From contig MEDY01000212.1 of NCBI GenBank assembly GCA_001724265.1, positions 1 through 64,000 on the forward strand: a stretch of DNA of 64,000 nucleotides, written 5' to 3'. Every line of letters begins with the position of its first letter. The stretch's first letter is position 1. This DNA is from Rhizaria sp. SCN 62-66. Its lineage: Eukaryota. The notes under the pieces are model-generated. The model was given only the letters and a program-made list of their open reading frames with translations, was not told where the DNA came from and did no database searches. The position numbers were made by a program, and so were the translations under genes. Shown here piece after piece: positions 9,001 to 57,446 of the stretch.

Positions 9001-12000
9001 CGTGCGCGCTGCCGGTCAACACGGGCGAGGCGCTGACCGTGACCGTCAAGGCCGGCTCACAGCGCCTCGAGTCGCGCAGTCGCGTGTCGTACGCAGGCCC
9101 AACAATCACGGGCATTCGTGGCTGCGAAAATGTATCGAATTTGATGATCCGCGAGTGTAACCGCCTGGGCAGCAACAAGATCGAGCTGATTGGACGCAAC
9201 TTTGGTGTCATGGCCTCGACAGTTATGGTTGGTGGGCAGAACTGTCTCAACGTAACGCATGACCCAACGTACCCGCATGAGCGCGTTACGTGCACCACGC
9301 CCCCCGGCTCCGCGAGCGAGCGCACAGTCACGCTAATGCAGCGCTATGGAACGATGTCGCTCGATAACATCCTGCTGTCATACGTGCAGTGTCCGCCCGG
9401 CCAGTATGGCCTTGACATCTTGTGTCTGCCTTGCGAAGCGGGCTACTTTAACGATATGTGGTCGCAAATGACCTGTCGTCAGTGCTCGCCCGGTCTCTAC
9501 TCCAACAGCACCGGCGCTATCAGCTGCACAGTCTGCCCCGCCGGCCAGTACTCCGACCTGGGCGCCCAGTCCTGCGGCGTCTGCGCGCGCGGAAGCTTCT
9601 CCGGTGAGCGCTCCGGTGCCTGCATGCAGTGCCCGCCCGGCACGTTTGCGCGGCTAGAGGGATCTTCCGTCTGCGAGGCGTGCCCACTCGGTGCCGAGAG
9701 CAACGAAGACTACACATTCTGTCGCTGCGCAGTGGGCGCATACATGGACGCTGACGGCACATGCGTCAAGTGCATGCTTGGCGGCGACTGCACTGTTCCC
9801 GGGACGACGATCTACAACATTAAGTCTCTGCCTGGATTTGCGCCCGCAGTAATCCGCTACAAGCGCGACAGCGTTGTGCGCATGCGGTTGTACGTGGCCA
9901 TGCACAGTGCAAACGAGGAGGCGCGCAAAGCGGCGCGTGCCACGGTCACGAAGCTGCTCTACGACGACTCTAACATGCCGCTGGAGCGAATTGTGCTTGT
10001 GGGGCTAAACTTTACCACGGAGGGCGAGCTTAGGGCTGCCAAGCTTGCTGTTGAGCATAGTGCTGGCAGCAGCAGCAGCTCAACTAAAACCGGAAAGCGC
10101 AGTGTTGCCTTTGCTGCCGCTCAAACTGAGGTCTTCCGCCTTACAAACGACACATTAACGCGCGACGATGCGGCTTTAGTTGCCGTGGTTGACGTCGATG
10201 TGTACCCCAGTGTCACCGGTGCTTACTCTCGCAATAACTCTAGTGAGGATCTGTACCTGCGTGCTGTGGAGCAAATCAACCACAACGCCGCCATGTTTCT
10301 GACCCGCAACGGCTTTTCTGCGCTCACTGCTGGCGGTTTTGCGCGTGACACGGAGTTTGAGCGTTTCGCCACGCCGTCGTTTGAGCTGTGCATCAACAAC
10401 GCGTGCCGCGGCAGCGACGTCTGTCTTGAAGGCCACACCGGCAACCTCTGCGCGGTTTGTCTTCCCGGCTACGGCAAGAGCTCAGCGTTTGAGTGTGCGC
10501 GCTGCAACAAGCCCGCGCTGCGCACGTTCATTCTCATTCTTTCCCTCCTTGGCGCAATCGTGATCTGCACCATCCTGGTCTGGAAGCAGATCACCGACGG
10601 CAAGCAGTCGATGAACGAGCTGCCCGCGCCCGCCGTGCCGCTGCTGCTTAAGGTCGCCACGTCCGGTCTGCAAGTAATGTCTATTGCCGCGCGCTATGAC
10701 CTGCAGTGGCCCGGCTTACTCGCTGACGTTTTCAGCACTGCGGACACTGCCGGTGGCGTCGGCACAGCATTCCTGTCTCTTGACTGCTTCCTGGCCGAAA
10801 ACCCCGCGGTGCAGCCGTTCTGGATAACGACAATTAGCATAATGGTGCTGCCACTGGTCGGCGTTCTGCTGCCCGCGATGGTCTTTACGCCGATGTACTA
10901 CGCCGCGCGTCGCCGCTATTGCAGGGAACTGCTCAAGCAGGCCGCTGAGGAGCGCGCGCTGTCGGCTGAGGTTATCGTCGAGCTCAAAGAGAGCGAAAAG
11001 CGCGCCCGCGGTGAGCAGGTGCGCAAGCGCCGCGAAAAGATCGAGCGCGAGAATACGCTCGTGTGGGAGCTCGTAGATGAGGGCCAAGGCCTTGCTGTGG
11101 ACAGCTACAACACATTCGACCCCATCACGGGCAAGACTGCCCTCCGCAGTGTCAACGACAAAGCCGCTGATAGTAGCGCTGCGGATGCCGTCAGCGCTAA
11201 CGGGGCCCCAGCACCGTCAGCCGTGTGGTCGCTGCGCCAGAGCCCCGCGCTCGGCGCCAGTAACTTGCACGCCGACGGCGGCAGCGGCCGCGCTGCTGGC
11301 GCCGGCCGAAAGCGCCGCGTTGCTGTCCGCCAGCGGCCGCGCATCGGGGTCAACTCGGCAGGCGACGTGGCCGAGACGCCACTGCCGCCGCCGGTGCGCC
11401 CGCCAGCGCACTCGCGCCCAGACAGCCACAGTCAGAGTTAGAGTCACTATGACTATAGTGCGACCGACGAAGACCATGACGAAGATGATGAGGAGCTTGG
11501 TGAGTTTGTGGTTGACTATGCACATAACACCGGTGTAGCAAACAACAACAACTACTACAACAACAACAACAGCAGCCCGCTTGTTGCCGCGACGTCACTG
11601 GCCCGTGGTCCCCTTTCTGCCCCCGACTCTAACTCATCCTCCGACCTAGGTGCTGTGCCCATTCTCGGTGACAGCTCTCCAGCGCACAACGTGCAACAAG
11701 CAACGCTGCTTGCTGCCGCCAATGCTCTGCATGCGCGCCACAGCCTCCGTTCCCCCTTTGCGGTTGGCAACGTCTCACCCGCGCTCACGTCTTTGTCCCC
11801 TAGTGCAGCCGCGAATGCCCCTGGCAGCCCCGCGTCCGCCACCGTTGCTTTGTTTGCCCGCAGTCCGCGCCTTGGTGCGCAGACCACTGTATTAGACCCC
11901 GTCGCGAGCCTCGCCGGTCCGCTTTTGCGTGGTCAGTTGCTCTCACAGCTTAAATCGCCCACTCTCGGCGGCAGCAGCCCGCGGTTGCACCCGCATCAGT

Positions 12001-19044: not shown

Positions 19045-20154
19045 ATGTCGCGGCGCACGCGTAACCCAACAGACCTTGCAGCAGTCCAGACAAGTCGTGG
19101 AACAACATCTACTGCTGCCGTTTCTGCTGCCGTTAATGTTTTGAATAAACCGCGTGTAACGTAGTTTAGGCCTCTCTACTTCGCCCTGGTGTCGAACAGG
19201 CACGGCTTGTCTCAGCATTCGCAAAGCTCTCGCGTCGCAGCATCTGACTCGCGTCGTGACTCGTCGAGCCAGATCAACATCAACAATAACAACAACAACA
19301 TCAGTGACAACAGGAACTGTGACCACGACGACAGTGACAGCAGTTACGGCTATTACGACGAAAGCGACAACTATATATATGCCTCGGGGTCTCAAGTCAG
19401 CACTAGCACCAAGCGTTTCAGGACTGCGGGCGCGAGCGCGAGTGCCGGTGCGCGCGCGGGCGCAAGTTATCCTGCTGATCTAAGGCCGATGGCTGATACT
19501 AACAGCGGCAGCAGCAGCAACACCGACACCGACAGTGGCAGCAGCAGTTACAGTGACCCGGATAGCGATGACACGGACGCTGATAGTGGCAGCACAGACA
19601 CCGACACCGAGCGCTCTGAAAGCGACAACGAACGCCCTGGCGGCGCAGCGGTGGCCAGCAAGCATACCCCGTGCAACGCGGCCAATGGGCGCTTCGAGTG
19701 CACGCTTTGCGACCCGAGTGTTTATTTTGCGTGCGAGCAGAACCTGAAGAACCACATAAATGCGCGTCACTTGGATATCAAGCCAATTATTTGCACCTAT
19801 GAGGGCTGTGGCAGGAGCTTCGCTCAGAAAAGTCACCTTACCGTTCACATCCGCACGCACACAGGTGAGAAGCCTTTTTTGTGCTCCTATGAAGGCTGTG
19901 GCAGCAGTTTTAGTCAGAATAGTGACCTTACCGTACACACCCGCACGCACACGGGTGAGAAGCCCTATGTTTGCACATTTGAGGGCTGTGACCGCAGGTT
20001 CACTACTAAGAATCGCCTTAACACTCACCTCCGCACGCACACGGGAGAGAAGCCTTATGTGTGCACCTATGAGGGTTGTGGTCGCAGGTTCACGACGAAA
20101 TATCCTCTTAACATGCACACCCGCACACATACTGGTGAGAGACCCTACGTCTGA
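19045..20154 (+). CDS. C2H2 zinc-finger protein (5 intact fingers before a TGA; N-terminal Ser/Asp-rich region)
   Basis: ATG 19045 ([11 protein letters not shown]) is in frame with ORF 19189 through a TAG at 19162-19164; [10 protein letters not shown]...[10 protein letters not shown] repeats of 90 nt. Confidence 0.8.
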
Positions 20155-20580
20155 TTATATGAGGGTTGTGGCTGCAGCTTCACGAAGAAATAAAAGCCTA
20201 ACTATCACATCCGCGTGCACGCGGGGTAGAAGCCTTATGTGTGCTCTCATGAAGGCTGTGGTCGCAGGTTTCGTCGAAATTGGGACGTTAACATACACAT
20301 CCGAACGCACACGGGCGAGAAGCCTTATGTGTGCTCTCACGAAGGCGGTGCTCATCGCTTTAATGATTCAAGCTACCCCACTTTGCACGTCCGCAGGCAC
20401 ACAGGAGAGAAGCCTTATGCGTGTTTGTATGAGGGCTGTGGCAGCAGCTTCACCCACTCACACAGCCTCACTCTGCACATGCGTACGCATACGGGCGAAA
20501 AGCCCTATCATTGCGAGCGGTGCCAGTGGTACTTCGGTTATTTGTCTTCTATCAAGAGCCACATGAAAACTGTCCACAAA
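19780..20580 (+). repeat. Tandem 90-nt C2H2 finger repeat array (~9 units)
   Basis: Recurrent gagggctgtgg...cgcacgcacacgggNgagaagccNtat with 90-nt spacing. Confidence 0.9.
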
Positions 20581-20991
20581 CTCGTCATTTGCGGCATTCG
20601 TTGCATCTCTGGCGCTGCTGCGGACTCTGACTGTGACTATGATTCTAGATCCTCTACTCTAACTCGGACTCGGACTCGGACTCGGACTCTGACTCCACAA
20701 CCAGCAGCCATGCGAGCGTCAATCGTGGCAACCTCAGCAGTGTCGCCGCCGCGGGCGGCGAGGCGCTGCAGGCGGACCCGCAGCTCGTGCGTGCCGGGCG
20801 CTCCAGTTCAGCCAGCTCCAGTGCAGCCAGCTCCAGGGTGCCGCAGCATTTGTGGCCGCAGGACTGCGCGGTGGCCAAGAGTAAATCCTGTGCTGGCCAC
20901 GATGGTTGCGGCTGTGACGGCTGTCAAAGGGTGTTGTCTGACGCAACGTCGACTCACATGGTGGACTCCAACATCTCCGCTTTGCATGTGA
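20155..20991 (+). pseudogene. Degenerate 3' continuation of the zinc-finger array (5 more fingers, two damaged)
   Basis: Same frame continues past TGA 20152, TAA 20191 and TAG 20227, all within one finger; a later finger has lost its second Cys (CSHEGGAH); last finger is CERC...HMKTVH. Confidence 0.6.
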
Positions 20992-21354: not shown

Positions 21355-21936
21355 TTAGAGCGTCTCGGCAGGCTTGACCTCGCCGCAGGCGTCGATGAAG
21401 ATGTTGACGAGCGGCTTGTCGCGGCCGTCGGTGCGCGCGTCCTCGATGGCGTGCACGACCTCCATGCCCTTGACGACCTCGCCGAAGACGACGTGCTTGC
21501 CGTCCAAGTGCGGCGTGGGCACCGTCGTGATGAAGAACTGCGAGCCGTTGGTGTTGGGGCCCGCGTTGGCCATCGAGAGCAGTCCGGGGCGCGAGTGCTT
21601 GACCACGAAGTTCTCGTCAGGGAACGAGCGGCCGTAGATGGACACGGTGCCGGAGCCGTTGCGGGCAAGGATGTCGCCGCCCTGCAGCATGAAGCGGCGG
21701 ATCACGCGGTGGAAGGGCACGCCCTTGTACGTCAGCGGCGCGTTATTGACGCCGCCGCGGTGGCCGCCAGTCGCCAGGGTGCGGAAGTTGGTCGCTGTCT
21801 TGGGCACGATGTCGTCGTAGAGCTTGAACTCAATGCGGCCAAGGGACGTCTCGCCGGCCTTGACGTCGAAGAAGACGTTGGGGAGGGCCTTAGGGACCTC
21901 GGCGAACGCGCGGCGGGTAGCCTTGAACATGCTCAT
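21355..21936 (-). CDS. Cyclophilin-type peptidyl-prolyl isomerase, probably mitochondrial (short Arg/Ala-rich N-terminal extension)
   Basis: [78 protein letters not shown]; intronless; ends at TAA. Confidence 0.97.
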
Positions 21937-22405: not shown

Positions 22406-25400
22406 TTACGGCCTCGGCTATTGCTTAATGTTAGTGGAGCCAATGAAACTGTGGCTGCGGCTGTGAGACGACGGCGGCGGTGGCGGCGGCGGCCTAAACG
22501 GCTGTGGAGGCTGTTGTGGTTGCTGTGGCGGCTGCGCTTGTTGCTGCTGCTGCCCTTGGGGTGGGGGCGACTGCAGTGGCGGTCGAGGCGGCTGCTGCGG
22601 CAACGGCTGCTCGTGCTGTGGCTGTGAAGCGTAATAGTTCGTCGAAACGCCGTAGGGCGCATGCCGCTCTGCATGATTGCGCTCATACGGGCGCTCGTGC
22701 TGGCCCTCTCGGGCACGCTCGCTGAAGCGCTCGCGGTCGCGGTCAATCACGCGTCCACGGTCACGCTCGCGCTCCATAAAGCGCTCACTTTCACGATCAA
22801 AGTCACGAGCAAAGTCACTCTCGAGAGGCCGTTCAATCGGCCGGTCCCAGTAAGGCTCCCGGTCACGGTTACGGTCACGGTCACGGTCACTGAAGGGCGC
22901 ACGTTCACGCTCCCAGACCCGCTCCCAGTCGCACTCCCGATCGACGCGGCCACGCTCGCGGTCGCGCTGCGGAGCGCGCTCCGGTGCGCGCCGGCGCTCT
23001 GGCGAAAGCTCGCGCTCGAGCTCGCCTCGGTCGGGGTCGATGAAACGCGCGTGGGCACCGTCGCGGTCGCGGTCAAAACCATCGCGCTCAGGAGGGACAA
23101 GAGGGCGGTCATAGTCGCGCACCCGGTAGTCATAGCCGCGCTCACGGTCAAACTCATGGTCAAAGGCGCGGTCGCGGTCATACGGGCGGGAGTATATGTC
23201 GCGCTCACGGTCAACGCGGTCGCGGTCTAGAGGGTCGAAACCGCGAGCAGGCAGGAAACTAAAGTCACGGTCATCCCGGTCGCGTTCGCGGTCACGCTCA
23301 CGGTCTCGATCAGGGTCACGATCAGCGCCAGGTCCGGCGCCAGGAACAGTGCCGTAGTCGCGCTCGCGGCCGTACGCGGGGCCAAGCGCTTCGCTACGGC
23401 TAGAACTGTTGCTAAGAGCAGATGCATGCGGCTTCAGTTGCTGCTGCTGTTGCAGCGCCTGTGGCGGCACCTTGCTGCTGACGGGCTTGCCCGCCGCGGG
23501 GGCGTTTGACGTGTTCGCGCCGGCCTCCGAACGCGCTCGCGCGATCTTTGCTTCCTTCTGCTTGATCCACGTACTGACAGCAGCTAGCTCACACTTGACC
23601 TCGCTTGTCCGGGTCTTCCTCGCCGCAATGGCCGCATCAGTGCTGGGCTTCTTGCCACGTAGAAGACCTGTCAGTTCGGCGTTCAGATCCTTGCGATCCC
23701 GGGTCAGCACAGCGAGCTCCGCCTCAAGGCCGCGGAGATACTTCGCAGTCTGGGCGGCGGTCCACTTGGGCCGCGGCGGCGCTACAGCACTGGACGCAGG
23801 GGGCGTACCGACTCCCGTAGCCGTTGCCGTTGCCGTTTCCATGGCCGTGGCTGTATCCGTTGCCCTAGTCGCGGTGGCTGGGGCTGCAGCCGCGGTCGCC
23901 CGCGCCCCCAGCGTTTTCCTGGCCGCGGCCAGCGCCCGCGCGCGCACGTCCACCTCCTCAGCGACGTCGGCTATCCAGGCCTGCATGAGCGCCAACTGCA
24001 CCCACGCCGCAGAGTGCACCAGCTTCACAGTCTCTTTGGCCTCGGCGGCGTGGGCCAGCAAGCCGTCGGCCGCCGCGGTCACGGCCGCAGTTAGACTGTT
24101 CGCGCCCATGTCGTCGTCGCCGCCGCCGTCGCCGCCGTCGCCGTCGCCACCGTCGTTACCTCTGCTGGGGAAACCGCCGCGGCGATCGAGCTCAAGGTCG
24201 GCTTCAACTTCCTGCCGTTGTCGCTCCAACTTCTGCTTGACACCCGCCAGCGCCGGTGACAGACTGCAGTAGCGGTCGCGCCACAGGTCAAACACAAGAT
24301 AGGCCAGTGGCCGGCTCAGAAGTATCGCCAGCGGCGACCAAAGCGGCTGCGATTTGTGCACCAAACACACCAGCGCGGGCGCTGTGCCCTGCCAGAGCGG
24401 CGGTGCGGTGGCGCAGCCGTCCTGCGCGGCGGCCGCAGCCACAGTCGTCACTGCAGTCGCTGCCGCCGTTGCAGTCGCCGCATGAGCACCGTGCGCGCGG
24501 AGACGAGCGGCGGCCGTCTTAGCCGCAATGTTAGAGGAATCTTTGCTCGACATGCGGGAGCGCAGCGGCCGCGGCGAGACGGGGCACGGCGAATCGAGCG
24601 CGAGCAGCTCAGGCAGGATCGGCAGTCGCGAGAAATCCACAAGGGCAGACGCCCGAGCTTTGTCGGGCGTGCGCTGCGGCGGCGTGCGCACCTCAGCCCA
24701 GCCGCCCGCGCCCGCGCCCGCGCCGGCACAGGAACCGGGGCCGGAGCCTGTATTCACACTCGCAGTGGCGCTGACGCTGGCGTCAGCGCCCGGCGCCTAA
24801 GCGCCCGGCGCTTCAGCGGCCGCGGCTTCCTGGGCCAGCAGAGTCTTGGTCCGGGCGAGCCAGGCCGCCGCCCACCGCCGCAGCGCCCGCCGGCGCTCAG
24901 CGAGGCGTGGCATCGGCGGCACGGGCCTCGGCCCTCGCTCCTGCTCCTGCTGCTGCTGCGGTAGCTTCTTCGGCCCGCTCTGCGTCTGCTGCGCGCGCGC
25001 GCGCCACGCGCGGCGGCACGCGCGGCCCCACGAACGCAGCGCCCGCGCCACCGCCTCGCAGCGGGCGCGGCCGCGCGCGCGGCGCAGGCTGTGGACGTTA
25101 TCCGCGGCAGCGAACACCGGCTCGGCGCTGTGGCGGCGCACGGCGGCACTCGCTCTCGCACCCGCACTCGCGCTCGCAGCCGCAACCTCGGCCTCGGCAG
25201 GGTCAGCAGCGGCAGCAGCCGTGGCGGCGGCAGCCGTGGCGGCAGCAGGGCGGGCGGCGCGGCCGCCGCGCGGCGCGAGTGCAGCGCTCGCTGCGGTCTC
25301 GACGGCGACTGCCTTGTTGAAGCACTTCTGCCGGAACCGTAAACTAGATTTAGGATTGGGGAGCGAGGCGGTGTGCGCCTGCTTCTCTGCGAGGAGAACG

Positions 25401-28400: not shown

Positions 28401-31400
28401 GCGGCGGGGTGCGGCAGCCCGCCCTCGACGCGATGCCCGTCGAGCACGAAGCTCAGCGCCGACTCGAGCGTCGCCGCCAGCCGCGACGCGCGCGGGTCCC
28501 CACCCAGCGCCAGCCCGCCGCCCGCGACGGGCAGCGCGGGGACGCCGCCGGACAGCGGCCGCAGCAGCGCCGCGGGCAGCGAGGCAAATGCAGAGGCCGA
28601 GAGCGGCGCGGCGGCGAGCGCGGCGGCGAGGCCGCTCGTGTCGCCGTTGCTGATGCTACTGCTGCTATGCCCGTAGCCGCGGGCGTTCGTGCTGCCGCTG
28701 CTCGCGTTGTTGGCTAGGACGGCGAGCGCGCGCAGAGGCACGGTCGAGAACACCGGCAGCGGCACTGCGACGGCGGCCGCGGCAGCGAGGGCTGCAACGC
28801 TCGCACACGCCGTCGCCGTCGCTGCTGTCGTCGTCACGGGCGTCGTCGCAGATGCTGCTGCGGTTGCTGCGGTCGGTGAGCGCCAGCCGAACGAGCTGCT
28901 GGCGTGGAAGCTCCGGCTCCCGCCGCCGCTGCTAATACCGCTCGTCGCGGTGTCGGTGCGGGTAGGGCTGCTGCTGATGCTGGTGCTGCTGAAGAAGCCC
29001 CCCGTCGCGCCGGCAGCCGGGCTCGCTACGGGCGCGGCACTCGCGCTCGCGACGGGGCTCGCAATGGCAGTCGCAGATGACGCCGGCGCGGCCGTGAGCG
29101 CGAGCGCGGCGGCGACGGGCGCCAGGGAGGGCAGCAGGAACCAGCCCGCCTGCTGCTGCCGCAGCTGCCGCCTGAGCGCTTGTTGCGCAGCCTTGCCGCC
29201 CGCGGTCGCGGCGGCCACCTGCGCCAGCGGCGGCAGCGCCGCGGCGGCGGACTGCGGCGCCGCGGGCGGGAGCCTGATGAGCACGCTGTTGGCCACGGCG
29301 GCGATGGCCAGCGCCTCGGCCTCCGCGGCGGCCTCGTCCGCCGCCGCCGCGCGCACCGCCGCCGCGTCGGCCTCGGCGTCCCCGCCCGCGGCGCCCGCTC
29401 CCGCGGAGCCCACGGCGGTGGCGCGGGCGCGCGCGAGGGCCTGTGCGTGCGCGTGCGCGGCGGCCTTGGCTGCAGCTGTCGCGGCGGCCGCGCGCGAGTC
29501 CTGGCGCCCGACCGCCCCGACCGACGACGAGGATGATGAAGATGCGGAGGACTGGTCGAGGGTGACGAGCTCGCCGCCCTGGAAGCGCACCGGCACCGAC
29601 AGCGAGTCGCAGGGCAGCAGCGGCCGGCGCAACGCCAGCAGCACCAGCGGGGACAAGAAGCCCGCGACGGGCGGCAGCGACTTAGCATTAAACTGCTGCG
29701 GTACATTTGCAGTCGCTGTTACTGATGCAGCTGCGGTCGCACAAGAGGAGTTGGAAGTCAAATCAGTCATTGCCGTCGCCGCTGACGCGCTCGGCACTGC
29801 GACTAAGGCTGAGGGCGCCGGCGCGAGCGTGCTGGCGCTCGCAGCAGAAGCTGTGTCGGCGTTATTGCCACTGCCTTTGCCTGCGTTGTTTGCATCGCCG
29901 GGCTCCGACTTGACTGAGCGCTTCTTGCGAGCCCTCTTCGCACGAGGCCCAGCCTGTGCCTCAGCCTTCACGTCAGCAGCATCAGCCCCAGCGTCAGCGT
30001 CAGCGTCAGCGTCGGCGGCGCGCCTGGAGCTGGCCCAGACTGCCGCGGCGGCCTCGGTGGTGGCGGCAACCGCGGCGGCCGTCGTCACCGCGGCACCGGC
30101 GACGGCTGCGAGCAGCGCGGCGCGGTGGTGCTCCGCCTCGGCGCGCGCGCGCAACCCGGGCGTGAGCAGGGTGTGCGTGAAGGTGCCCGCCGCGTTGTGC
30201 ACCGGCGTCGGCCGCACCGGCGGCCGCTGCAGCTGCGGCAAACTCAGCGCCAGCGCCAGCGACAATGACGACGACGCCGATGATGAAGCCGCAGAGAGAG
30301 CCTTTGCGGTGCTCGTGTCGCAGTGAATGTCGACCTCGTCTGCGCCACTGCGCAGACACAGCGAGGCGGCGTCGATGCGCATTGCTGCCGCGACCGCAGC
30401 CGTGGCTGCGGCCTCGGCGGCCTCGGCGACGGCGGCCGCGCGCCGGCTGCGGAGGCGGCTAGGGCACTCGCAACAGAAGCCGCCCCAGCCGCCCTTAACA
30501 GCCGCGACCGCAGCTGCAGCCTGAGTGCGAGAGTCGAACTCAGCGTCGGAGTCAGAGTCGCCCCAGCAGCCCTCCTCTTCCTCCTCATCTTGCTCGTCAT
30601 CCTCGTCGCTGTCGCCACCGTCGTCGCCGTTACCGTTATTGTTGCCGCCGGCAGGACCGGTAGCGTCGCGGTCCGAGTCGTCCGACCCGGACCCGGAGTC
30701 CCCAGAGTCAGAGTCAGAGTCAGAGTCAGCGCCGGCGCCCGCACCGCCGCGGCTGCCGCCTCTCGCGCCGATCCCAGTCCGCGTCCCGAAGCGGCGCTAG
30801 CAGTAGCACAGAGCGCGCCGCGAGCGGGCGCGGACGCTGGCGCGGGCCGCGGCCGCGGCGGCGGTCACCGAGCGGATCGCCTCGGCCGCAGCGACGTCCT
30901 CAGACTGCGCGTGAGACTGTGACCGCGAAAGCTGCGAGAGCGACGTTGAGAGTGACGTTGAAAGCGACTCCGTCATAGTGACCGTGAGCGAAATCTCCGC
31001 AGCGCCGTCTAAGGGGCCCATCTTGCGGCCCCTTAGATCGCTGAGGCGCGCGCGCCTTGGCTCCCACCAGCCGCGCTGCGCGGGGCTAAGCGGGTACACA
31101 GGCGCCGCCGCGCAGAGGACGCTGGGCGGCAGCGCCCCCGCCCCCGCCATAGTAGCCAGTTGCGTCGCGGAGAGCGAGCGCGACTGTGGCTTCGGCTGCG
31201 GATCAACGTCGACAGTCGTCACAAGCGCTGTGACAGCAGTAGTGGCATCAGCAGGAGCAGCAAGAGCAGCGGTAGTGGCGGCAGCAGCATCGGCGGCGGC
31301 GTAGGACTGCTTCACGCGCTCAAGCTTCCGCAATTGCTTCAAAGGAACAGCTTTAGTCGCAGGCACCGTCTCAATCGCAGGGAGATAACCGAACAGGCCA

Positions 31401-44744: not shown

Positions 44745-44778
<34 letters not shown>

Positions 44779-44961
44779 GCCAGCACTAGCGCTAAGACTG
44801 CGACGAAGACTGCTGCCAAGGGTGCGTCAGTGCTGCTGGAGGAAGCGGCATTGCCCGTGGAGACCGTGAGCAACGATCCGGCGGCAGTGGCTGCGGTTGC
44901 GGACGCGTTTCTGCGCGTCTTTTACCACTACTCCACTCAAAACAGCGACAAGCAGCAGTGA
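40492..44961 (+). CDS. Threonine synthase-like 1 (THNSL1)-like protein: degenerate shikimate-kinase-like plus threonine-synthase-like domains, mitochondrial-type presequence; exons 40492-42287, 42509-43868, 44017-44961 (1,366 aa)
   Basis: MFRSAALTTLSRTRTRAR presequence; ILLAGSPG (P-loop-like); LVSTRG..SLAADGGLLLP..LTYEQR..VLELFHGP; VLILEVEG; AAAVAARALGLPV; GRLLDSATAVA; ends at TGA. Confidence 0.75.
42288..42508 (+). other. Intron 1 of THNSL1-like gene (221 nt, phase 2)
   Basis: GTATGA...TCCCGCAG, AT-rich; AG|G frame-consistent. Confidence 0.88.
43869..44016 (+). other. Intron 2 of THNSL1-like gene (148 nt, phase 0)
   Basis: GTACGC...TTCCGCAG; frame-consistent. Confidence 0.88.
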
Positions 44962-45274: not shown

Positions 45275-47177
45275 ATGTCTCAAGAGTCTGCTCCAGCAGC
45301 AGCAGCAGCAGCAGCAGCTGATTCGAGCGTCCCCAGTCCGTGCAAGCACGACGAAGCTCGGGACGACGCCAACAAGCAGCTGGCCGTGTGCCCCATTCTG
45401 CGCATACCGCGCTTCGACGACTGGCACCTGCACCTGCGCGACGGCGCCGCGCTACCCGAGTACGTCTGGGCGTCTGCGCAGCGGTGCCGGCGAGCGCTGG
45501 TAATGCCAAACCTGGCGCCCCCCGTCACCACCACTGCGGCCGCGCTGGCCTACCGCGCGCGCATCCTCGCCGCGCTCGCCGCCGCCGCCGCGCGCCGCGG
45601 GCTGGCCGCTCCGCCGCCCTTCACGCCGCTGATGACGCTCTACTTGACGGAGGCCACGACGGCGGAGGAGATCGCGCTCGCGGCCCGCTCGGGTGCGGTC
45701 GTGGCCGCGAAGCTCTACCCCGCCGGCGCCACCACCAACGCGGCCCAGGGAGTGCGGGATATAGCCCGGCTGGACCCCGTGCTGCGCGCAATGGCCCGCG
45801 CAGGACTCGTGCTGTGCGTGCACGGTGAAACGACGGACCCGGCCACGGACGTGTTCGATCGGGAGGCGCAGTTCATCGCCACTGTGCTCGTGCCGCTGCT
45901 GGCCCGGCACCCGCGGCTGCACGTGGTCATGGAACACGTGACCTCCGCCGCCGCGGTCGCGCTCGTCGACGCTGACACAGTCCCGGCAAACACGCAGACA
46001 CCAACGCAAACGCATGCAGCGGGCGCTTCAAGTGCCGGCGCAAACGCTGCTTCAAGTTGTTCAAGTGTGCCTATCGCGGGGCGCGTTGCCGCGACGATCA
46101 CCCCGCAACACATGCTGTTCTCGCGCAACGCGCTGTTCCTGGGCGGCAAGCTGCGTCCGCACGCCTACTGCCTACCCGTGTACAAGACGGAGCGCGACCG
46201 CTGGGCGGTGGCGGGCGCGGCCGCGGGTACCGGGGTCAGGCACCCAGAGCGGTTCTTCGCCGGGACCGACTCCGCGCCGCACGCAATAGACGCAAAATGT
46301 AAGAAAAAGCATACGACTAGCAGTTTTAAGTTGTTATATAGTCAATATCCTTGTTATATCCCTCAAAAAAATGGTTTCGCCTATCTTTAACCACCCCTCA
46401 CTTCCCTCACTTGTGCCGCTTGTCTGTCCTCACTCGCGCCCGTAACCAGAGTGCTCCGCCTGCTGCGCGGGCTGCTATACGGCGCCGGATGCCGCCGCGC
46501 TGTACGCGGAGGCCTTTCTGCGCCACGCCGAGGCGCTGCTGCTGGCCGGCGACCTCACCGCGGCAGCCACGGTGACCGTGGGCCGGTTGCGCGCCTTCCT
46601 GGCGCGGGACGGTGCCGCGTTCTACGCCCGTGCTGCCCGCGCGGCCAGAGCGGCCGCGGAGGGGACGGCAACGGAGGGCAACCCTGCTGGCGATGACAAC
46701 CGCTCCAGCAGTGGCAGTGGCAGTGCGGGGGGCGCGGACCCCGCGCTGTTGGCCGCACTCGACTTGCCGCAGCACAGCACCGCGACGGCGACTGAGAACA
46801 ATGACAGCAGAGACAGCAACGACGACAGCAGCGACGGGCTGGTGTTGCTGCACTGCCGCTGCGACTGCTGCTGCTGCGGCAACGGCGGCGGAGGCGGCGG
46901 CGGCGGCCCGCGCGGGTGCCCCGCAGGCGCCCCGGGCTGCTGTCTCACGCGGGCCAACAACGAGCAGGCGCAGGCTCTACAACTGCAACAGCAGCAGCAA
47001 AGTGACTACAACGACGATGCGGCGGCGGTGACAGTGCGGATGGCGGCGGCAATGGCGGTGCGCCTGCGGTGGACACACGCCGCACACGTCACAGAGTGCG
47101 CAGAAGGCAGAAAGGTCTCCGAGTGCACAGAAGTAACTCTCGGGAGCAGCGGCGTTAGCAGCGTTGGTAAGCAGTGA
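45275..47177 (+). CDS. pyrC: Class II (PyrC/URA4-type, stand-alone) dihydroorotase; exons 45275-46298 and 46450-47177 (could extend to TGA 47329-47331 if there is a +1 indel near 47142)
   Basis: DDWHLHLRDG, ALVMPNLAPPVTT, PLMTLYLT, KLYPAGATTN, VHGE, FDRE, MEHVT, ATITPQH, PHAYCLPVYK, FAGTDSAPH, then after the intron CAGCYTAP..LYAEAF..LRAFLARDGAAFY. Confidence 0.95.
46299..46449 (+). other. Intron of dihydroorotase gene (151 nt, phase 1); splicing creates a T|AG codon
   Basis: GTAAGA donor, ACCAG acceptor; a TAA at 46443 in the exon-2 frame constrains the acceptor position. Confidence 0.85.
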
Positions 47178-48534: not shown

Positions 48535-49330
48535 AAAGGGTCATATCCCGCTCTCTACCAACATTGCCAAGTATTTGTTGTCCACCGCGCAGTTTTAGTA
48601 TTTTTTATTTTCACCTGTTTCCTACTGCGAGTTTGTTTCACGCTGAACTCACACCGCGACGACATATTACTGCGTTCGTCGCGCCGACAACGCAATCCTG
48701 TTCAGCAATGTCACGCACGCATAACTCAACAGACTTTGCAGCAGCCTAAACAAATCATCATCGTATAGCTTCAACTACTGCTGTTGATGCTGTCGTTCCG
48801 AATGTACCGCGTGCCAAGTAGTTTCGGCCCCTCTCCAACAACAGCTTTACTAGTTTCATCGGCGACAACATGTGACAACGACGACAGTGACAGACAGCAA
48901 TGACGGCTCTCACGACGGAAGCGACAAGTGTATGTATGCCTTGGGGTCTCAAGTTAGCACTAGTAACAAACAGCCTCACTCCGCACATGCGCACGCACAC
49001 GGGCGAGAAGCCCTATTTGTGCTCTTATGAAGGTTGTGGTAGTAGGTTCACTATGAAGGGCTACCTTTACGTACACACCCGCACGCTCACGGACGAGAAG
49101 CTTTATCAGTGCGAGCGATGCCAGTTGTGATTTGGCCTGTTAGAGTTGGCCAACATCAGCACCTTAAGCGCCACATGATGCGGATTCACAAACTCGCCAG
49201 TAGCGCTGCCGCTGGCGCTGACTCTGACTCTTGTGAGCTCTTGTGAGCTCTGTGACTTACCACCGTCGTTGCAGTGGTTGTCCAAAGCCTCCACAAGTTT
49301 GCAACGCACATGTTGTTGATGTTCGCGCTT
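48535..49330 (+). pseudogene. Decayed, internally deleted duplicate of the zinc-finger gene at 18895-20991
   Basis: Collinear similarity including upstream DNA (agggtcatatc..ctacc.acattgc..aagtatt..tccaccgcgcag), MSRT.N.TD.AA start, ggggtctcaagt.agcactag, [23 protein letters not shown]; stops and frameshifts present. Confidence 0.85.
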
Positions 49331-50266
49331 TACACGTCCGATTGGCTTCGCTCGCTATGCTCTTGCGAAGATATATAGCTTCTACTGGAATAATAAATAT
49401 GTCCATGGTTAATTTCACCGTTAAAAGGTGTATCAACTTTAAAATTAGCGCTACAACAAGAGATTGTACTTCGTTTTATCTTGTTTTATCCAAAACTCCC
49501 CGTCCAAATGCGTTTGTGGTTTAAAAGTTTTCTGGTGACTGGTGACTGTGATCAGCCCGATCGCGATTCGATCGACTCGCAGTGAGAATGTGGTCGGCGA
49601 AAACGGAGTATTGGCGCTGTACCGGATCGACACGGCGGTTCAATTTCAATTTTCCAACTAGAATAGTTGCTTTACTACTCAACTGTAATTTATTTCTTGT
49701 GCGGCGCTATGTGCTGTCTGCGCTGGACAACCGGATGTTAAGCGATGATGGCAACACGGTGGATGCGTTCAAACCGCCCCTTGACCGCGCCCGCCGCATC
49801 CCTATTCTCCAGCGCAGCTACTCATCCTTGTGCAGCGTTGCCACCGCGCGTATGCACCTCTCGCGCAAGTTTGTGGCTGTTTGCGTCTGATGCACACGCC
49901 ACGGCACTTGTCCGGAGTCGCTGGAGAGGTGGCTCTGCCACCCCCTGTCCTTCTCCCCTCGCCAGGTGGCCGCAACGCATACTAGACGCCGTGAAATCGC
50001 GTTTGATAGCCGCGTTTCATTTTTCTTGTCGCGAATCGCTCTCTTAATTATTCCTGTCAGCTGTTTTTACTTCTAATCTCTCAAAACTCACGCACATATC
50101 CTCACAATTCTCCTCTCTTCTTCCCTTCCCTCTTAACTTTTAAAATTCAAACAGCCTCTTTCTTTTTCGACAACAAGGCCCACCAAGCTTTGTTGCTGTT
50201 TCTTCTCCTCCGCCCCCCGCGTTGCCCGCTCACCACGCCCTGCGCGCCCCCGCCGGAGCCCCGCCG

Positions 50267-53200
50267 ATGAGCCGCCCCGCGTCCGCGTCGTCCGCTGCGG
50301 CCGACGCCCGCGACCGCGTACGCTCGCTCATGGTCGCCGACGACCTGCCCGCCTACCACCTCTCCATCGCCTCCATCGAGCTGGGACTGGGCGTCTCCGT
50401 CAAGCGCGGTCTCAGCGCCGAGCAGGTCGCCACGAACCGGCTCAAGTACGGCTCCAACCGTCTGCGCGAGCCCAAACAGCTTCACCCGGTGCTCATGTTC
50501 CTCAAGCACATGGTCAACCCGATCACCTTCATCCTCTACTGCGTCTTCATCATCCAGGTACGAGTCCACCAATGTTGTTGCCTATAATATATGTTCATTA
50601 TATTTATATGTATTTTTGCTATCTTACTATATCATCACGCTTTTATTTTAAATAGCCCTCTCTCCTCATGATCTCCCCGCAATATATCCTCTTGTGCTGC
50701 TCCTCACTACCAGGCCGTGTCCAACGAATGGATCGACGCAGGCGTGGTGATGTTCCTCATCGTCGCCAACGCGATCCTGGGCTTTGTCCAGGAGCTTAAG
50801 TCGGTGATGTCGCTCGCGGCGCTGCAGTCGATGTCGTCGCCCGTGGCCACAGTAATGCGCGACGGCGCGTCGATGGCCGTGGACATCAACGACATCGTCG
50901 TCGGCGACGTCGTGCTGCTCAAGCAGGGCGACCAGGTCCCCGCCGACCTCCGCGTCGCGCAGGCGCTCAACCTCGAGGTCGACGAAGCGCTGCTGACGGG
51001 CGAGTCGGTGCCGATCTTCAAGCACACGGACCCACTGCCGCTGCCCAAGCAGGAGCGCGCCGACCTCATCGTCTCGGTCGCGCTCGGCGACCGTAGCAAC
51101 ATGGCCTTCCGGCAGACCACGGTCGTGGCCGGCACGGGTGTGGGCGTCGTCGTCGCGGTCGGCGAGGCCACCAAGGTGGGCCAGCTCTCGGAGCGGCTCC
51201 TCAGCGCGGGCAACCCCAAGACGCCGCTGGAGCGCAAGATGGCCATCTTCATGTACTCGGTCTTCGGCATGGCCATCATCCTCGCCATCATCATCTTCGG
51301 CGTCACCGGCTTCACCTTCGAGCACGACACGATCGTCTACGCCTCGGCCACCGGCATCGCGATCCTGCCCGAAAGTCTCATCGCCGTCGTCACCGTCACG
51401 CTCTCGCTGGCGACGTCGCGCATGGCGGCCCGCAAGGCCATCGTGCGCAAGATGGGCGCCGTCGAGATCCTCGGCAACGTCACCAACATCTGCTCCGACA
51501 AGACCGGCACGCTCACGGAGGGCAAGATGGTCGTCAAGCGCTTCTGGCCCGTCGGCTCCAAGTACATCTACCACGTCACGGGTGGCACCATGGACGCCAC
51601 CGGCGGCTTCGGCCTCGAGCACGACCCCACGGACCCAGACGCGCCGCCCGTCGAGCCGGGCCGCCGCTCCTCGCGCGCCGCCTCCCGGGCCTCGCGCGCG
51701 GGCACACGCGCCTCGCGCGCCGCCTCGGGCACCGGCGCCGCCTCTGTCGGCTCTATTGGTGGGACTGTCTCCGGCCGCCCCAGCACGGCCACGGGCGAGT
51801 CGCGGCGCTTCCGCGCGCCGTCGTACGCGCACACGGTGGCCAAGGTCTCGCAGGGGCTGCCCGAGTCTGACTTCTCGGCGGTGCAGAAGGCGGCCGAGGA
51901 GCTAGCGCTGGTCTGCGCGATGTGCAACAACACGCAGCTGCAGCACGACGAGGAGGAGGACAAGCTCATCGGCACCGGCAACCCCACGGAGCTGGCGCTG
52001 CAGGTGCTCGCGTACAAGCTGCAGAGGTCCCCTTACTACTTCGAGGAGGACGAGGGCTGGCTAAAGTGCGGCCAGTGGGCCTTCGACTCGGGCGTCAAGT
52101 GCATGTCGGTCGGCCTCGTGCGCGACGCCGAGCTCAAGGAGGAGGACGAGGCCTCGGGCCGTGAGGACGGCGACAACTCGCTCGAGTGCAAGGTGCTGCT
52201 CAAGGGCGCGCCCGAGGCCGTGCTGCCCAAGTGCCCAGGCGCCAACGTCGACGAAGTCATGGCCAAGGTCGCTCACCTTGCCGGCCAGGGCTACCGCGTG
52301 CTGGCCTGCGCCGCGCGCGACGACCTCAGGCTGGCCGACCGCGACGGCGCGCGTCTGCATGACATCGACCGGCACCTGGCCGAGTCCAACATGCGCTTCG
52401 TGGGGCTTGTCGTGGTGTACGACCCGCCGCGCGAGGAGTCGTACGTGGCCGTGCGCAAGTGCAAGGAGGCGGGCGTGACGTTCCACATGGTGACGGGCGA
52501 CCACCACGGCACGGCCGAGGCGATCGCGCGCAAGCTGGGCATCCTGGAGGACCACCAGGGCCGCGACCGCGTCACCACGGGGCCAGTGTTCGATGCCATG
52601 ACGGAGGAGATGATCGACCTGATGGAGGAGCTGCCGCTGGTTATCGCACGCTGCTCGCCCGAGAGCAAGGTCAAGATGGTCGAGGCGCTGCACAGGCGCC
52701 GCCGCATCGTGGCCATGACCGGCGACGGCATCAATGACGCGCCCGCGATCAAGATCGCCGACGTGGGCGCTTGCATGGGCATCGCGGGCACGGACGTCAC
52801 CAAGGGCGCCGCCGACATCGTGCTGGCCGACGACAATATCGCGACGCTGGTCAACGCCGTCGAAGAGGGCCGCCACGTCGCCGCCTCGATCCGCAAGTTC
52901 ATCGTGCACCTGCTTACGTCCAACATCGCCGAAGTGATCGTGCTCATGATCGGGCTCGCGCTGCGCGACGACAACAACGAGGTCGTTTTCCCGCTCTCCC
53001 CGCTGCAGATCCTCTGGGTCAACATGTTCACGTCGACACCCCCCGCCATCGGTCTGTCGCTGGACGAGAAGAACCCTGCGCTGATGCAGCAGCCGCCGGA
53101 CCACCGGCCTCTCTTTTCGCTCGAGGTCATGACGGACCAGTTCATCTACGGCATCATTCTCGGCGGCCTCACCTTCGGCGGCTACCTCGTCGTTATCTTC

Positions 53201-53686
53201 GGCTTCGGCGATGGCGAGCTGGGCACCCACTGCAACAAGACCTCCGGCGAGCACACGTGCCACCTGGTGTGGACGGCGCGCACGACGGCCTTCGCGACGC
53301 TCAACACGCTACTGCTCTTCCACGGCTACGTGTGCCGCGATCCGCGGCAGAGCGTGTTCGCGCGCTCCTGGCTCAGCAACAAGGTGCTCCTGTGGTCTCT
53401 CATCGTGGGCTTCGCGCTGCTCATGCCCGTCATCTACATCCCGGGCGTCGCGCGCACGCTCTTCCGCCACGCCTACATCTCCTGGGAGTGGGTCATCGTG
53501 CTCGTCTGCATCGTCCTGCACCTGCTGCTCACCGATCTGTACAAGTTCGTCAAGCGCCAGCTCTACGGCGAGAACCACTGGGAGGCCGACGGCGGCCGCG
53601 CCAGCGCCGGCATCAAGGGCGGCAGCCGCGGCGCGCGCACCGTCATCACCGAGGACGGCGGCCGCATCGAAATGATTCCCGTCTAA
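50267..53686 (+). CDS. ENA: P-type ATPase, ENA-like (type IID Na+/K+ efflux); exons 50267-50557 and 50714-53686; 5' and 3' ends slightly uncertain
   Basis: GLS..RLKYGSNRL, DEALLTGES, IAILPESLIAV, ICSDKTGTLT, GNPTELALQV, KGAPE, DPPR, HMVTGDH, ARCSPESKVKMVEALHRR, MTGDGINDAP, ILWVNMFTSTPPAIGL. Confidence 0.92.
50558..50713 (+). other. Intron of P-type ATPase gene (156 nt, phase 0)
   Basis: GTACGA...TACCAG; joins IIQ|AVSNEW between TM1 and TM2. Confidence 0.9.
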
Positions 53687-55199
53687 GGCCACGTCCGAGT
53701 CCAAATCGAAGTCTAAGTCTAAGGGCCTCGCGCCGCAGTTTAAGTACCCAGACGACGAATCGAGTCTGAGTGCTTCTCGCTTTCTTGTCGTGTTTTGGTG
53801 CTTAGTTGCTTTGTATTTTATTGTGATGTATGGTGTATTTTTATTGTTTGTTTGTGTTTTTTTTCGATTTCGTTTTTCAACGTTATGTTCTGGTTTAGAT
53901 TTCGTTTTGATGCTTGTTTGTGACGATGATGGGGGAAAGACAGTCTGAAAACCCTCGATCGAGGTGAGAATGCAAGCGTATCATGTGTGAGTGCAAAATA
54001 CTGTGTGCGTGTGAGTATAAGTGTGATTGTGTGCGATGTTATGAGCTTTTTTTAAGCTTTATCTTGAATCTGGCACGGCAGTTTTTGTGTCTTCTTTCTT
54101 CCTTTGTTCTTTTCATTCATTACGTACGTACGTCTGTGTTGACTTTTCAGCTCTTTTTGTGATTTGCCAACGTGTGCTAGCCAACTTTCCTTCCCTTTGC
54201 GCCTCCGTGAAAGCCAATAACTTCGCACAATTTATACGAAACGAGAAACAATCATTCTAACAACAACTGTAACAATGTGCCCATTGAAATAGCTGGCATA
54301 GTAACACTGCCGTTACTGCTGTGCTTTCTGCCCGCAGTCGTTCACAATTGTTGGGATTGCAGTCAGCTTAGAACAAAGTTTCTGTAGTTGTTTCTGCATC
54401 TCATTCGTTTTTGAACACTTTCCTCGCGCCTTCACATTAACCCGCACACACCTGCGCACGCACTCATGTATACGCTCCGTTTTACGCTCGCACTTGTTTG
54501 CTGTCGCTGCTGTTGATAATGCTAATGGTGATAATGTTGTTTGTGCTAATCGTGCTCGTTGTCTTGTAAAATCTCGAAGTGCTACTGCTGATCTTGCTTT
54601 AGTTCATTGAACTCTTCGTGTTTCATATTTCAAACGACTCAGCTATGACTTATAGTTAATCCTAATAATGATTACTACAACTAACAATATTACTGCTATA
54701 TAACGTGGATAAATACAAATTTGCTTTGCTTTTATTCTTTGAATAACATTACAGTTGCAACAAGACGTCACACTCAGTCACAGTATCGATGTGAGAGCAG
54801 TTGGCGTTTGCAAAAAAAGATCTAGATAGAATCCGAAATTTGTTCTAAGTAATCGTTGTGATTGTGCGCTAATAAATCACATTAACGCACAATATGTCTG
54901 TACCTGAGCGTTTTGAGATGGGCACCCTACGGGCACCGGAAGCTTCTCTTCTTATCGCGATTCGTTTAATTTAGATGAGACAGTTCAAAGTTACAGTACT
55001 TCAGTGTTAAACTAATATAAAAAGACAACGCGGTGTCTATCCAGTCATAAGCCTTAGGGTGCCCATCTCAAAACGCACAGGTACAATCTATTGCAGTCGC
55101 ATAGGCAACCCCATGAAAAGCTGTGTTGTTGACACAGCGGTTGTCGTTGCTGCTGTAGCTCTTGTAGCTCTGCGCACAGGCACAGCCTCAGAAGCTGTC

Positions 55200-57446
55200 T
55201 CACTGCATGAGGAAGGCGACGATGCCGGTATCGAAGCCGCAGCCGCCACAGCCGGCCCGCAGCCCCGCCTCGGCCGCCGGGCGCCCCCAGGGGCCCGCAG
55301 CAGAAGGAGCATTGGTACTCGCACCAGCACTAGCATTTGCACTCGAGTAGACTGCGGCCACGGCGGGGGCCTGGGCGAACACAGGGGCCAACGCACAGCA
55401 CCCTTTGTTGCTCTGAGGCAACTGCGACTGCGACTGGGCGTGCGCGTTGTGCGCTGCGTAGACGGCCCCCAGCAGAGCCCGCGTCCGCGCCGCCGCCGCG
55501 GCCACGGCCGGACACGAGCACAGCAGAGCCAACGCAGCGACACCCACCGCACCAGGCCCAGACGCAGACGCAGAGTCTGTCGGCAGCCAGAGGGGCGACT
55601 GGGGGCCGGCCTTGGCGGCGGCCGCGGCGGCTGCGGCGACGGAGACGGCGTCAGGCACCTCCGCGATGTGCGCCCCCGCCTCGCAGCCGCAAGCCATGCT
55701 GCGACTGCCAGCGCTGGCTTCAGCGGTGTTGTTTGCGATGTGAGTATTACTCGCGAGTGCGAGTGCTAGGGAGCAGTGGCAGGAGCAGCAGCCGAGCCAG
55801 AGCAGAGGCACCGCGCCGTCCGAAGTTAGGCCGCCGCCACCCCGTGTCGCGGAAGTTAGGCCGCGCGGTTCGAGCACGCCCGTCGGGCACAGCGGGCACT
55901 GCGACAGCGCGGCGGCCACGGCGGCGGCGGCGGCGGGCGCGGGGCCCGGGGCAGCGCTCTCGGCCACGGACAGCAGCGCAGCGGCGTCAGCAGCAGCCTC
56001 AGCGGCGGCCGCAGCCCCCGCGGCGGCCTCGGCCTCGGCAGCCACCCACCAATCGCAGTCGCTGTCGCCGGTCTGCGCATTGGCGTTCGTGTTAGCTGTG
56101 CCATTGTAGTACGCAGCGGCAGCCTCCTCGTCGAATGCTTGTTGCTGCTGCTGTTGTTGCTGTTGTTGGTTATGCAGCCACTGCTGTTGTTGTTGCCGTT
56201 GCTGGCTCTAATCTTCGTCCCGACATGCCTGGCCGACGCCGCCATACGCGGCAGCAGCACCGCCGCGACTGTACCCGTCGCCGTCGCCGTCGATGGCGGC
56301 CGCGACGGCCGACTGGACCTCAGCCAGTTCCTCGCGGAGGCTCTCAGCCAGCAGCGCGTCCTTCATCGCCAGCATGATGTCCACCATGTCCTCGCTCGTC
56401 AGCACGCTGCCAGTGCTGTCAGGGGCGGCGGCGGCGGCGGCGGCGAGACCTGTGAGGATCAGAGACGAGCCGTCGTCGCACATGCTCCCAGTGTTGTGAC
56501 CAGACTGCGCCTGCGCCTGTGTCTGTCGGTCCGGCGACGCTCGGGCTGAGGCCTGCGCCGAGGCAGTGCGGGAGATGGCGGCGACGGCGTTGCGGCGGTA
56601 CCACTGGAGGAACCACTCCTTGCTGTTGCCGCCGGAGCTGCTGCGCGTCACCGCGGCGTTGTGGCGGCTGCTGTCGTCGTCGTCGCCCATCGCGGGGCTG
56701 CACGTAGTACCGCCGAGGCTGGTGACGGCGGCGGTGGGGACGCGTGACAGCACCGCCGGCAGTCCGAAGCCGGGAAACGACGACGAGGATGAGGACGAGA
56801 GCGACGAGGAGGATGAGGGCGTTGTTGTGATGGGAGACGAGCCAGAGCTGGAGCCGGCGCTGGCACTGGGGCCGAAAATGGAGCCGAAGCTAGCGTTGGT
56901 GCTGGCAATAGCCGCAGCGTTGGAGTTAGCGTTGCTGCCGAAAGGGGTCGAGAAACCTTGCTGTGGAGCTGTACGGGCTGCGTTAGGCGTCATCGGGAAC
57001 GACGCGATAGTAGCAGCAGCGCCGCTGTTGCTGCTGCTTGTGCTGAGGGCGGACTGAATGATGCCATGGAAGGCGGAGGCCATGCTGGCAGCGGCGCGAC
57101 GGGCACTCAAGCGGCCGGCGGGAGCACTGCCACCGCAGCTGCCGGCGTGAACGTCGGCGGTGTTGCCGTTCCCGGTGAGCCCCAGACCAAGGCCGAGCAC
57201 GAGGGCGTTCTCGTTGAAGCAGCTGTCGTCGTCGTCGTCGTCGTCGTTGCCGTCCTGGCCGTCGCCGTTGCTGGCGTTCGAGCCGCACGAGGAGCCGCGG
57301 ATGCGGGTAAGGATCTCGGAGCGGTTTGCGCGTACGAGGTCGGCACAACGCGACATCATGCTCGCCTTAATCGACTCGCGCGTGCTCAAACCACGCGCCT
57401 TGGCCGCCGCGAGAGACGCGCCGGGAGACGGGCGGGGACGGAACAT
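55200..57446 (-). CDS. RPAIN: RPA-interacting protein (RPAIN/RIP)-like, 748 aa, with an in-frame TAG at 56208-56210
   Basis: N-terminal RESIKASMMSRCADLVRANRSEILTRIR, middle EDMVDIMLAMKDALLAE, C-terminal Zn finger CPLC..CSC..H..C..P.F..CGGCGF..IV; ends at TGA. Confidence 0.75.

Follow-up and report, generated by a model that had tools for sequence, protein, structure and literature searches.

The question raised by the DNA analyzed here is which amino acid the codon TAG encodes. The DNA is a 64-kb stretch of nuclear DNA from Rhizaria sp. SCN 62-66 (contig MEDY01000212.1, positions 1 to 64,000), which we call the window and to which all counts refer unless stated otherwise. TAG occurs within the reading frames of several of its genes. 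An earlier note on this DNA had proposed that TAG is a sense codon while TAA still terminates translation, and had found the clues to its meaning divided between glutamate (Glu, E) and glutamine (Gln, Q). Our analysis indicates that TAG is very probably translated as an amino acid, and it narrowly favours a predicted code in which UAG alone means Glu and UAA and UGA are stops, an assignment to which we give about an even chance. The coding DNA has a GC content of 60-80%, with a GC content at third codon positions (GC3) of up to 0.97, and the spacers are AT-rich. Both strands carry genes, introns are few, and the donor sites observed were GTAAGA, GTACGC and GTACGA.

Among 16,924 conservatively chosen codons of coding sequence (CDS), we found eight in-frame TAG codons and a ninth TAG split by an intron in the gene for a type II dihydroorotase (DHOase). 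The same set contained neither TAA nor TGA in frame, a count which covers the window only and outside which lies a decayed zinc finger described below. Ten gene ends were identified, five with TAA, five with TGA and none with TAG. Thus, the proposal that TAG is sense and TAA still a stop was borne out. Six stop codons are flanked on both sides by standard open reading frames (ORFs) of at least 300 codons, and five of these six are TAG. The codon is rare, with a frequency of about 0.5 per 1000 codons (9 TAG compared to 553 GAG and 440 CAG). The relevant sites are the following, with x marking the position of TAG in the translation:

333..335, plus strand: TAG in the N-terminal part of gene 1 (FARFD x YRFET); homologs and internal repeats give no ancestral residue
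6638..6640, plus strand: TAG in sushi repeat 3 (Pfam Sushi) of gene 1 (GANTL x PTY); Q in the ortholog P0389
7550..7552, plus strand: TAG in sushi repeat 7 of gene 1 (ATTP x YGT); Q in the ortholog P0389
11439..11441, plus strand: TAG within gene 1, in a cytoplasmic stretch of low complexity (CAG AGT / TAG AGT); ortholog gapped and uninformative
19162..19164, plus strand: possible TAG (KPRVT x FRPLY) close to where the zinc-finger gene has its 5' end; uncertain whether coding
20149..20232, plus strand: decayed C2H2 finger with in-frame TGA at 20152, TAA at 20191 and TAG at 20227 (HAG x KPY)
22418..22420, minus strand: TAG in NIKQ x PRP stop, four codons before the TAA that closes a 4,206-codon ORF
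24785..24814, minus strand: tandem 15-nt units, GAA GCG CCG GGC GCT / TAG GCG CCG GGC GCT, with TAG at 24797-24799
30797..30799, minus strand: TAG in the giant low-complexity gene (ALCYC x RRFG), with 1,409 and 1,999 open codons on either side
45275..47177, plus strand: DHOase gene (exon 1 45275-46298, intron 46299-46449, exon 2 46450-47177) with TAG split as T/AG
56208..56210, minus strand: TAG in RDED x SQQRQQQQQ, between an acidic run and a poly-Gln run

No significant Pfam domain was found around TAGs 333, 11439, 22420, 24799, 30799 and 56210, and no internal repeats were found around TAG 333. For the possible TAG at 19162 to be in frame, translation must begin at the upstream Met, and this region gives a weak GC3 signal. 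Further candidates were discarded as in-frame codons: TAG 18541 lies upstream of the start Met, TAG 43878 is located within an intron with a GTACGC donor, and TAG 8022 loses the frame when the 32 nt missing from the window are supplied from the separate assembly L001. On the minus strand at 22406-22420, the giant gene ends with TAG, three codons and TAA. The TAG at 22418-22420 may be either a sense codon or a former terminator that is now read through to a back-up TAA, as expected soon after a reassignment.

If TAG were an ordinary stop, the in-frame TAGs would have to be explained by nonsense mutation of genes in decay, by masked alleles or by errors of assembly, which we consider improbable. 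Under the GC3-rich codon usage of this DNA, 62-66% of random nonsense mutations would produce TAG, chiefly from CAG (the largest one-step source with 45%) and GAG (19%), and this alone would yield a Gln/Glu split. The TAG-only pattern by itself is therefore modest evidence: that nine of nine in-frame stops are TAG has a p value of about 0.012-0.023 against the nonsense expectation. An ordinary stop would also agree with the zinc finger, which is truly decayed and holds all three stop codons, and with the window assembly, which has two frame-breaking deletions that are not present in other assemblies. Against it speaks the integrity of the frames, in which decay would be expected to leave insertions and deletions. 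L001 shares TAGs 6638, 7550 and 11439 with the window, and one ORF of 2,726 codons spans them there without a frameshift. The giant ORF of 4,206 codons with its three TAGs is likewise free of frameshifts, as is the ORF of P0391, a 2,131-residue protein encoded in a different assembly of this organism, which begins seven codons past TAG 333 and stops right before TAG 6638. Identity to the ortholog is 0.69 upstream of the sushi TAGs, 0.70 between them and 0.73 downstream, without gaps, and beyond its TAG the DHOase gene retains the motif of exon 2. The absence of frameshifts and the equal conservation downstream therefore lend extra support to TAG as a sense codon, and none of the ten gene ends uses it. 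Equally improbable in our view is a UAG without fixed meaning, at which leaky termination would let near-cognate tRNAs insert mixed residues where their identity matters little. Such a leaky reading would fit the great rarity of TAG and its absence from the three genes with the highest GC3, those for cyclophilin (21355-21960) and a P-type ATPase (50264-53686) and gene 14 (58874-61880). These genes comprise about 2,285 codons, for which about 1.2 TAGs would be expected, so that the absence is not significant. It would also fit the location of most TAGs at low-complexity or variable positions, and ancestral residues that include both Q and E. However, gene 1 has four TAGs and the giant gene three, and partial readthrough at each would leave little full-length protein. 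Moreover, one TAG occupies a constrained position in DHOase, and no readthrough context is shared by the TAGs: the base following TAG is T, C, T, A, T, A, C, G, C and A at ten sites and T at the DHOase site. The feature of a context-dependent code of the Condylostoma or karyorelict type, all three stops in frame, was not seen, since outside the decayed finger only TAG is in frame. A mixed Q/E ancestry need not imply leaky or mixed decoding either, and is what would be expected of a rare, young codon, because in this DNA a single step would produce TAG most often from CAG and GAG. Taken together, the in-frame UAGs within conserved coding sequence of several genes, found twice in the sushi repeats, in DHOase and in four more genes or positions, probably reflect a nuclear code with a UAG-only stop-to-sense change.

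Three sites are firm enough to be informative on the amino acid, and the one that points to Glu lies in the DHOase gene. Here, T at position 46298 is followed by a 151-nt intron (GTAAGA...CCAG) and by AG at 46450-46451, and the predicted splice would join these to TAG. The alignment of exon 1 reaches residue 285 of chain 4lfy_A. The match of exon 2 to this chain is weak (E 0.21); its ungapped extension puts the TAG at residue 286, and an alignment of 119 homologs likewise places it on the Glu following a conserved Lys. This column holds E in all 118 close homologs that reach it, the 119th running into an intron at this spot, so the Lys-Glu column that had been put forward as a Glu clue indeed shows strong conservation of Glu at the TAG position. 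In a wider set of 148 representatives of clusters at 50% identity, the motif is found in 93, and the residues in this column are E in 66, Y in 7, L in 5, H in 3, Q in 1 and others in the remainder. The nearest eukaryote-like homologs, P0002, P0241 and P0243, lose similarity directly after the Lys and continue with G-T or G-K. This pattern would fit predicted proteins that run into an intron at the same site and in the same phase, with G as the last base of the exon in place of the T found in the window. The ancestral DHOase codon was therefore probably G/AG, that is, a Glu codon. The three homologs probably come from related eukaryotes.

The other two firm sites lie in gene 1, a surface-protein gene of more than 4,800 codons with Sushi, TIG and ephrin-receptor-like domains according to Pfam. 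Protein P0389 (2,260 residues) matches the sushi region over 660 ungapped residues with 70% identity and is 60% identical over 2,218 of its residues (in an alignment of 2,303 columns). It has the same domain set and, judged by these similarities, is the gene 1 ortholog from a related organism. Of the 20 residues flanking each sushi TAG, 16 and 14, respectively, are identical in P0389. The columns of the sushi repeats within gene 1 itself were considered as a further clue to the residue and rejected as too variable, the column differing among the eight repeats, with T, R, L, R, M, Y and A in the paralogous ones. The earlier note had left leucine (Leu, L) as an option by comparing LANLYG with ATTP x YG in the sushi repeats; since P0389 has Q at this TAG and the paralog column varies, this clue falls, and none of the three firm sites aligns with Leu. 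The division between Glu and Gln noticed earlier has thus become sharper, with two of the three firm sites on Gln, as seen in one ortholog, and the third on a Glu that is invariant in close homologs.

Because TAG is rare, each TAG is probably a recent one-step derivative of a neighbouring codon, and the ease with which a residue change is accepted at the site therefore matters as much as the aligned residue. All TAGs with a readable ancestry are one mutation away from CAG (Gln) or GAG (Glu). If UAG means Glu, two Gln-to-Glu changes would be required at variable surface positions of sushi repeats, where they would be tolerated; if it means Gln, a Glu-to-Gln change would be required at the DHOase position that is invariant in 118 homologs. 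In a codon-aware likelihood calculation over the three firm sites (Q, Q and a constrained E), the ratio E:Q was 3.6-12 at middle settings (kappa 3, average Q/E acceptance 0.1-0.25, acceptance at the DHOase site 0.02), which were assumed and not measured, and 0.29 to 51 over all settings tried. We therefore narrowly prefer Glu, and envisage the following scheme. UAG would be translated while UAA and UGA still terminate, presumably by a tRNA whose CUA anticodon does not read UAA. The codon, at about 0.5 per 1000, would be young and derived from CAG or GAG. The inserted residue would be Glu, as suggested by the fact that the sole TAG at a strongly constrained position replaces a Glu invariant in close homologs, whereas both Gln-aligned TAGs occupy surface positions of sushi repeats that would tolerate a Gln-to-Glu change.

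Several results weigh against Glu. The firm informative sites number only three, and the Glu assignment at the DHOase site hangs on a predicted splice. The residues right after this TAG depart from the family consensus, and the constraint on Glu may therefore be relaxed in this lineage. P0389 has Q at both sushi TAGs (GANTL-Q-P and PTP-Q-YGT). At its 59 other Q sites, the window mostly has Q as well (Q 41, L 4, E 3, R 3, K 2, S 1 and M 1 for the 57 tabulated), and at the 86 sites where the window has E in this comparison, the relative has Q at three. A naive tally of columns gives a Q:E ratio of 531 for the two sushi sites and an E:Q ratio of 66 for the DHOase site, or about 8:1 for Gln. With a prior of 1:5 against Glu, the probability of Glu, given Glu or Gln, ranged from 0.05 to 0.91 and thus depends on the assumptions. 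The tandem CAG AGT / TAG AGT pair within 11427-11447 points to Gln. Finally, no tRNA genes were found in the window by ARAGORN and no RNA genes by Rfam, hence no tRNA(CUA) is present there. The single window is thus unable to decide between Glu and Gln.

UAG = Gln, the code of NCBI table 15, is accordingly the alternative that we regard as possible, though as less probable than Glu. UAG would be read by a tRNA-Gln(CUA), or by a near-cognate tRNA-Gln(CUG) together with a weakened release factor, and the Glu-to-Gln change in DHOase would be tolerated. This is the meaning suggested by the ortholog at both sushi TAGs, with their well-conserved flanks, by the tandem pair and by the naive tally. CAG turns into TAG by a transition, and no other codon here contributes more to TAG in one step. 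The DHOase column, moreover, is not absolute in the wider family. Among the reassignments of UAG or UAR listed in PMC11687900, Gln also predominates by a wide margin, and it is the usual meaning in known cases (PMC11687900; PMC5304391; these and the sources named below are cited from excerpts), which again weighs against Glu. The same wider DHOase set can be read the other way, as Q occurs only once among its 93 members and never among the 118 close homologs. According to a model estimate, about 9% of young TAGs would be expected to derive from GAG if UAG were Gln, whereas one firm and two weak cases out of six were observed. That UAG encodes one fixed amino acid other than Glu or Gln, for example Leu (its meaning in the rhizarian exLh), Tyr, Ser or Lys, seems to us the least probable of all readings. 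Leu occurs in a sister sushi repeat, and the DHOase column has L in 5 and Y in 7 of 93 sequences. In contrast, none of the three firm sites indicates Leu, Tyr, Ser or Lys, P0389 has Q and not L, the window has L at only 4 of the 59 Q sites of the relative, and the paralog column carries no signal.

The remaining clues are weaker, and those for Glu and for Gln roughly cancel. On the side of Glu, the linker HAG x KPY with TAG at 20227 had been compared with the canonical linker of zinc fingers. The TAG is present in the damaged finger as described; its value as a Glu clue is nearly void, since TGA at 20152 and TAA at 20191 are in frame as well. The three stops align to Cys (TGA), Tyr (TAA) and Glu (TAG) of the sister fingers, each being one mutation away, and the fingers flanking the decayed unit are intact on both sides. 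Removal of this finger by splicing was considered and rejected: the sole frame-keeping GT...AG pair (20149-20229) has a GTCTGA donor, unlike the GTAAGA, GTACGC and GTACGA donors observed in the window. A stray zinc-finger fragment with an in-frame stop was noticed at 48900-49150 on the plus strand. Its sequence is paralogous to the 3' end of the gene for the fingers at 19165-20600, and the finger family therefore appears to be decaying in this genome. The second clue to Glu, the duplicate EAPGA/xAPGA at 24785-24814, was likewise found where it had been reported, on the minus strand. The two units differ at two bases of the first codon and at none of the remaining 12, which makes the repeat weak as a Glu clue. 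TAG thus falls on Glu columns at one firm site (DHOase) and two weak ones, compared to two Gln-aligned firm sites. The sequences quoted as clues to Gln were both confirmed: CAC AGT CAG AGT TAG AGT CAC (HSQS x SH) stands at 11427-11447 in the frame of gene 1, and the minus-strand TAG before SQQRQQQQQ was confirmed at 56208-56210.

We compared these features with the known codes. Reassignment of UAG alone to Gln has been described in Iotanema spirale, Hartmannula sinica, Trochilia petrani and Protocruzia tuzeti (PMC11687900; PMC5304391). These codes resemble the window in having UAG as sense and UAA as stop, and two of the three firm sites are Gln-aligned here. They differ from it in that UAG is widely used there, in phyllopharyngeans in 78-91% of genes at a GC content of 27-54% (PMC11687900), whereas the coding DNA of the window is GC-rich, contains only 0.5 TAG per 1000 codons and has one of them on an invariant Glu. 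UAG alone is read as Leu in the rhizarian exLh and in metagenome-assembled genomes (MAGs) of uncultured phyllopharyngeans (PMC5304391; PMC11687900). The likeness to the window lies in the UAG-only change, the UAA kept as stop and the uncultured material; no Leu-aligned site was found here. In the green alga Scotinosphaera, UAG alone is reassigned to Ser, as cited in PMC11687900, again with UAA as stop, and no Ser signal was seen at the informative sites of the window. UAG = Glu is known alongside a recoded UAA only: peritrichs have UAR = Glu and the ciliate PL0344 has UAA = Lys and UAG = Glu (PMC11687900), and Blastocrithidia has UAR = Glu and UGA = Trp, its common ancestor being inferred to have been GC-poor already (PMC12153298). 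With these systems the window shares the possible Glu meaning of UAG. In Blastocrithidia, moreover, the recoded codon is reported to be avoided in highly expressed genes, and likewise the genes of the window that look most highly expressed lack TAG. Peritrichs, Blastocrithidia and PL0344 also recode UAA, in contrast to the window, with no in-frame TAA in 16,924 codons and five genes ending with TAA. As TAA is a stop here, the window does not belong to the codes of any of the three, and the GC-poor ancestor of Blastocrithidia contrasts with the GC-rich present genome. A CUA anticodon decodes UAG and leaves UAA unread (PMC5304391).

The earlier note had held that UAG = Glu with UAA retained as stop would be a new code variant. 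This agrees with the excerpts of PMC11687900 and PMC12153298, in which the known UAG = Glu cases also recode UAA, and no report of such a code was found in the literature searched, supplementary files lying outside it. The window fits the UAG-only class, as a new variant if UAG is Glu and as a further member if it is Gln. In the former case, the code would be one not yet listed, in an early phase with TAG as about 1% of Glu codons, and in a genome that is not AT-rich; in the latter, it would be a further independent origin of a known code. Codes that separate UAG from UAA are rare and bear on the co-evolution of release factors and suppressor tRNAs. Either way, the host is very GC-rich, with a GC3 of up to 0.97, whereas the reassignments described in the excerpts cited are tied to AT-rich genomes. 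The codon has so far remained very rare, and the reassignment may therefore be at an early stage in this lineage. With so young a codon, tallies of aligned residues blend its true meaning with its mutational ancestry from CAG and GAG, and small samples can mislead. Standard gene callers truncate the proteins of this organism in public databases at every TAG, as in P0001 and P0391.

With respect to its origin, the DNA of the window was also present in bioreactor, wastewater and activated-sludge sequencing runs of seven studies. Besides the domains of gene 1, Pfam recognized C2H2 zinc fingers and the P-type ATPase; cyclophilin and DHOase were recognized via translation and homology, and several very long Ala-rich genes had no domain match. 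The ATPase clusters solely with four database proteins of 53-61% identity. Its named relatives, from kinetoplastids, Andalucia godoyi, Tetraselmis and fungi, reach 35-45% over the best local match, which leaves the lineage unplaced. Within the limits of the ATPase tree, it is neither ciliate nor fornicate; on the evidence of sequence, it is a phylogenetically unplaced, GC-rich eukaryote that recurs in wastewater systems. A metagenome scan for more DNA of the organism yielded only L001, which overlaps the window, and a scan of viral contigs for matching DNA yielded nothing. Scanning genome contigs with the relative P0122 detected 71 bacterial or archaeal P-type ATPase loci of 24-40% identity and no eukaryote, and nothing relevant was found in the literature searched on activated sludge. 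An origin from a giant virus (compare the excerpt of PMC13524828) was set aside: hallmark genes of viruses were not encountered, DHOase, the ENA-type ATPase and cyclophilin are cellular genes, and spliceosomal introns are present.

Two breaks of the gene 1 frame reflect differences between assemblies. Between positions 8026 and 8027, the window lacks 32 bases that are present in L001 at 2336-2367, and adding them turns gene 1 into one frame; P0389 has residues matching this stretch. The deletion in the window, which breaks the frame, is an assembly error or a variant allele. A second break was noticed at about 2150-2175, where P0391 has about 20 additional residues between ...SPRMP and VLAALTEYSF. 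Opposite the ATPase gene, at 50666-53980 on the minus strand, a frame of 1,104 codons is open except for three TAGs. It is open because GC3 is about 0.95, and long open frames in this DNA are no proof of genes. At 40390-44961 on the plus strand, three successive ORFs are separated by short AT-rich gaps with GTA donors and look like the exons of one gene.

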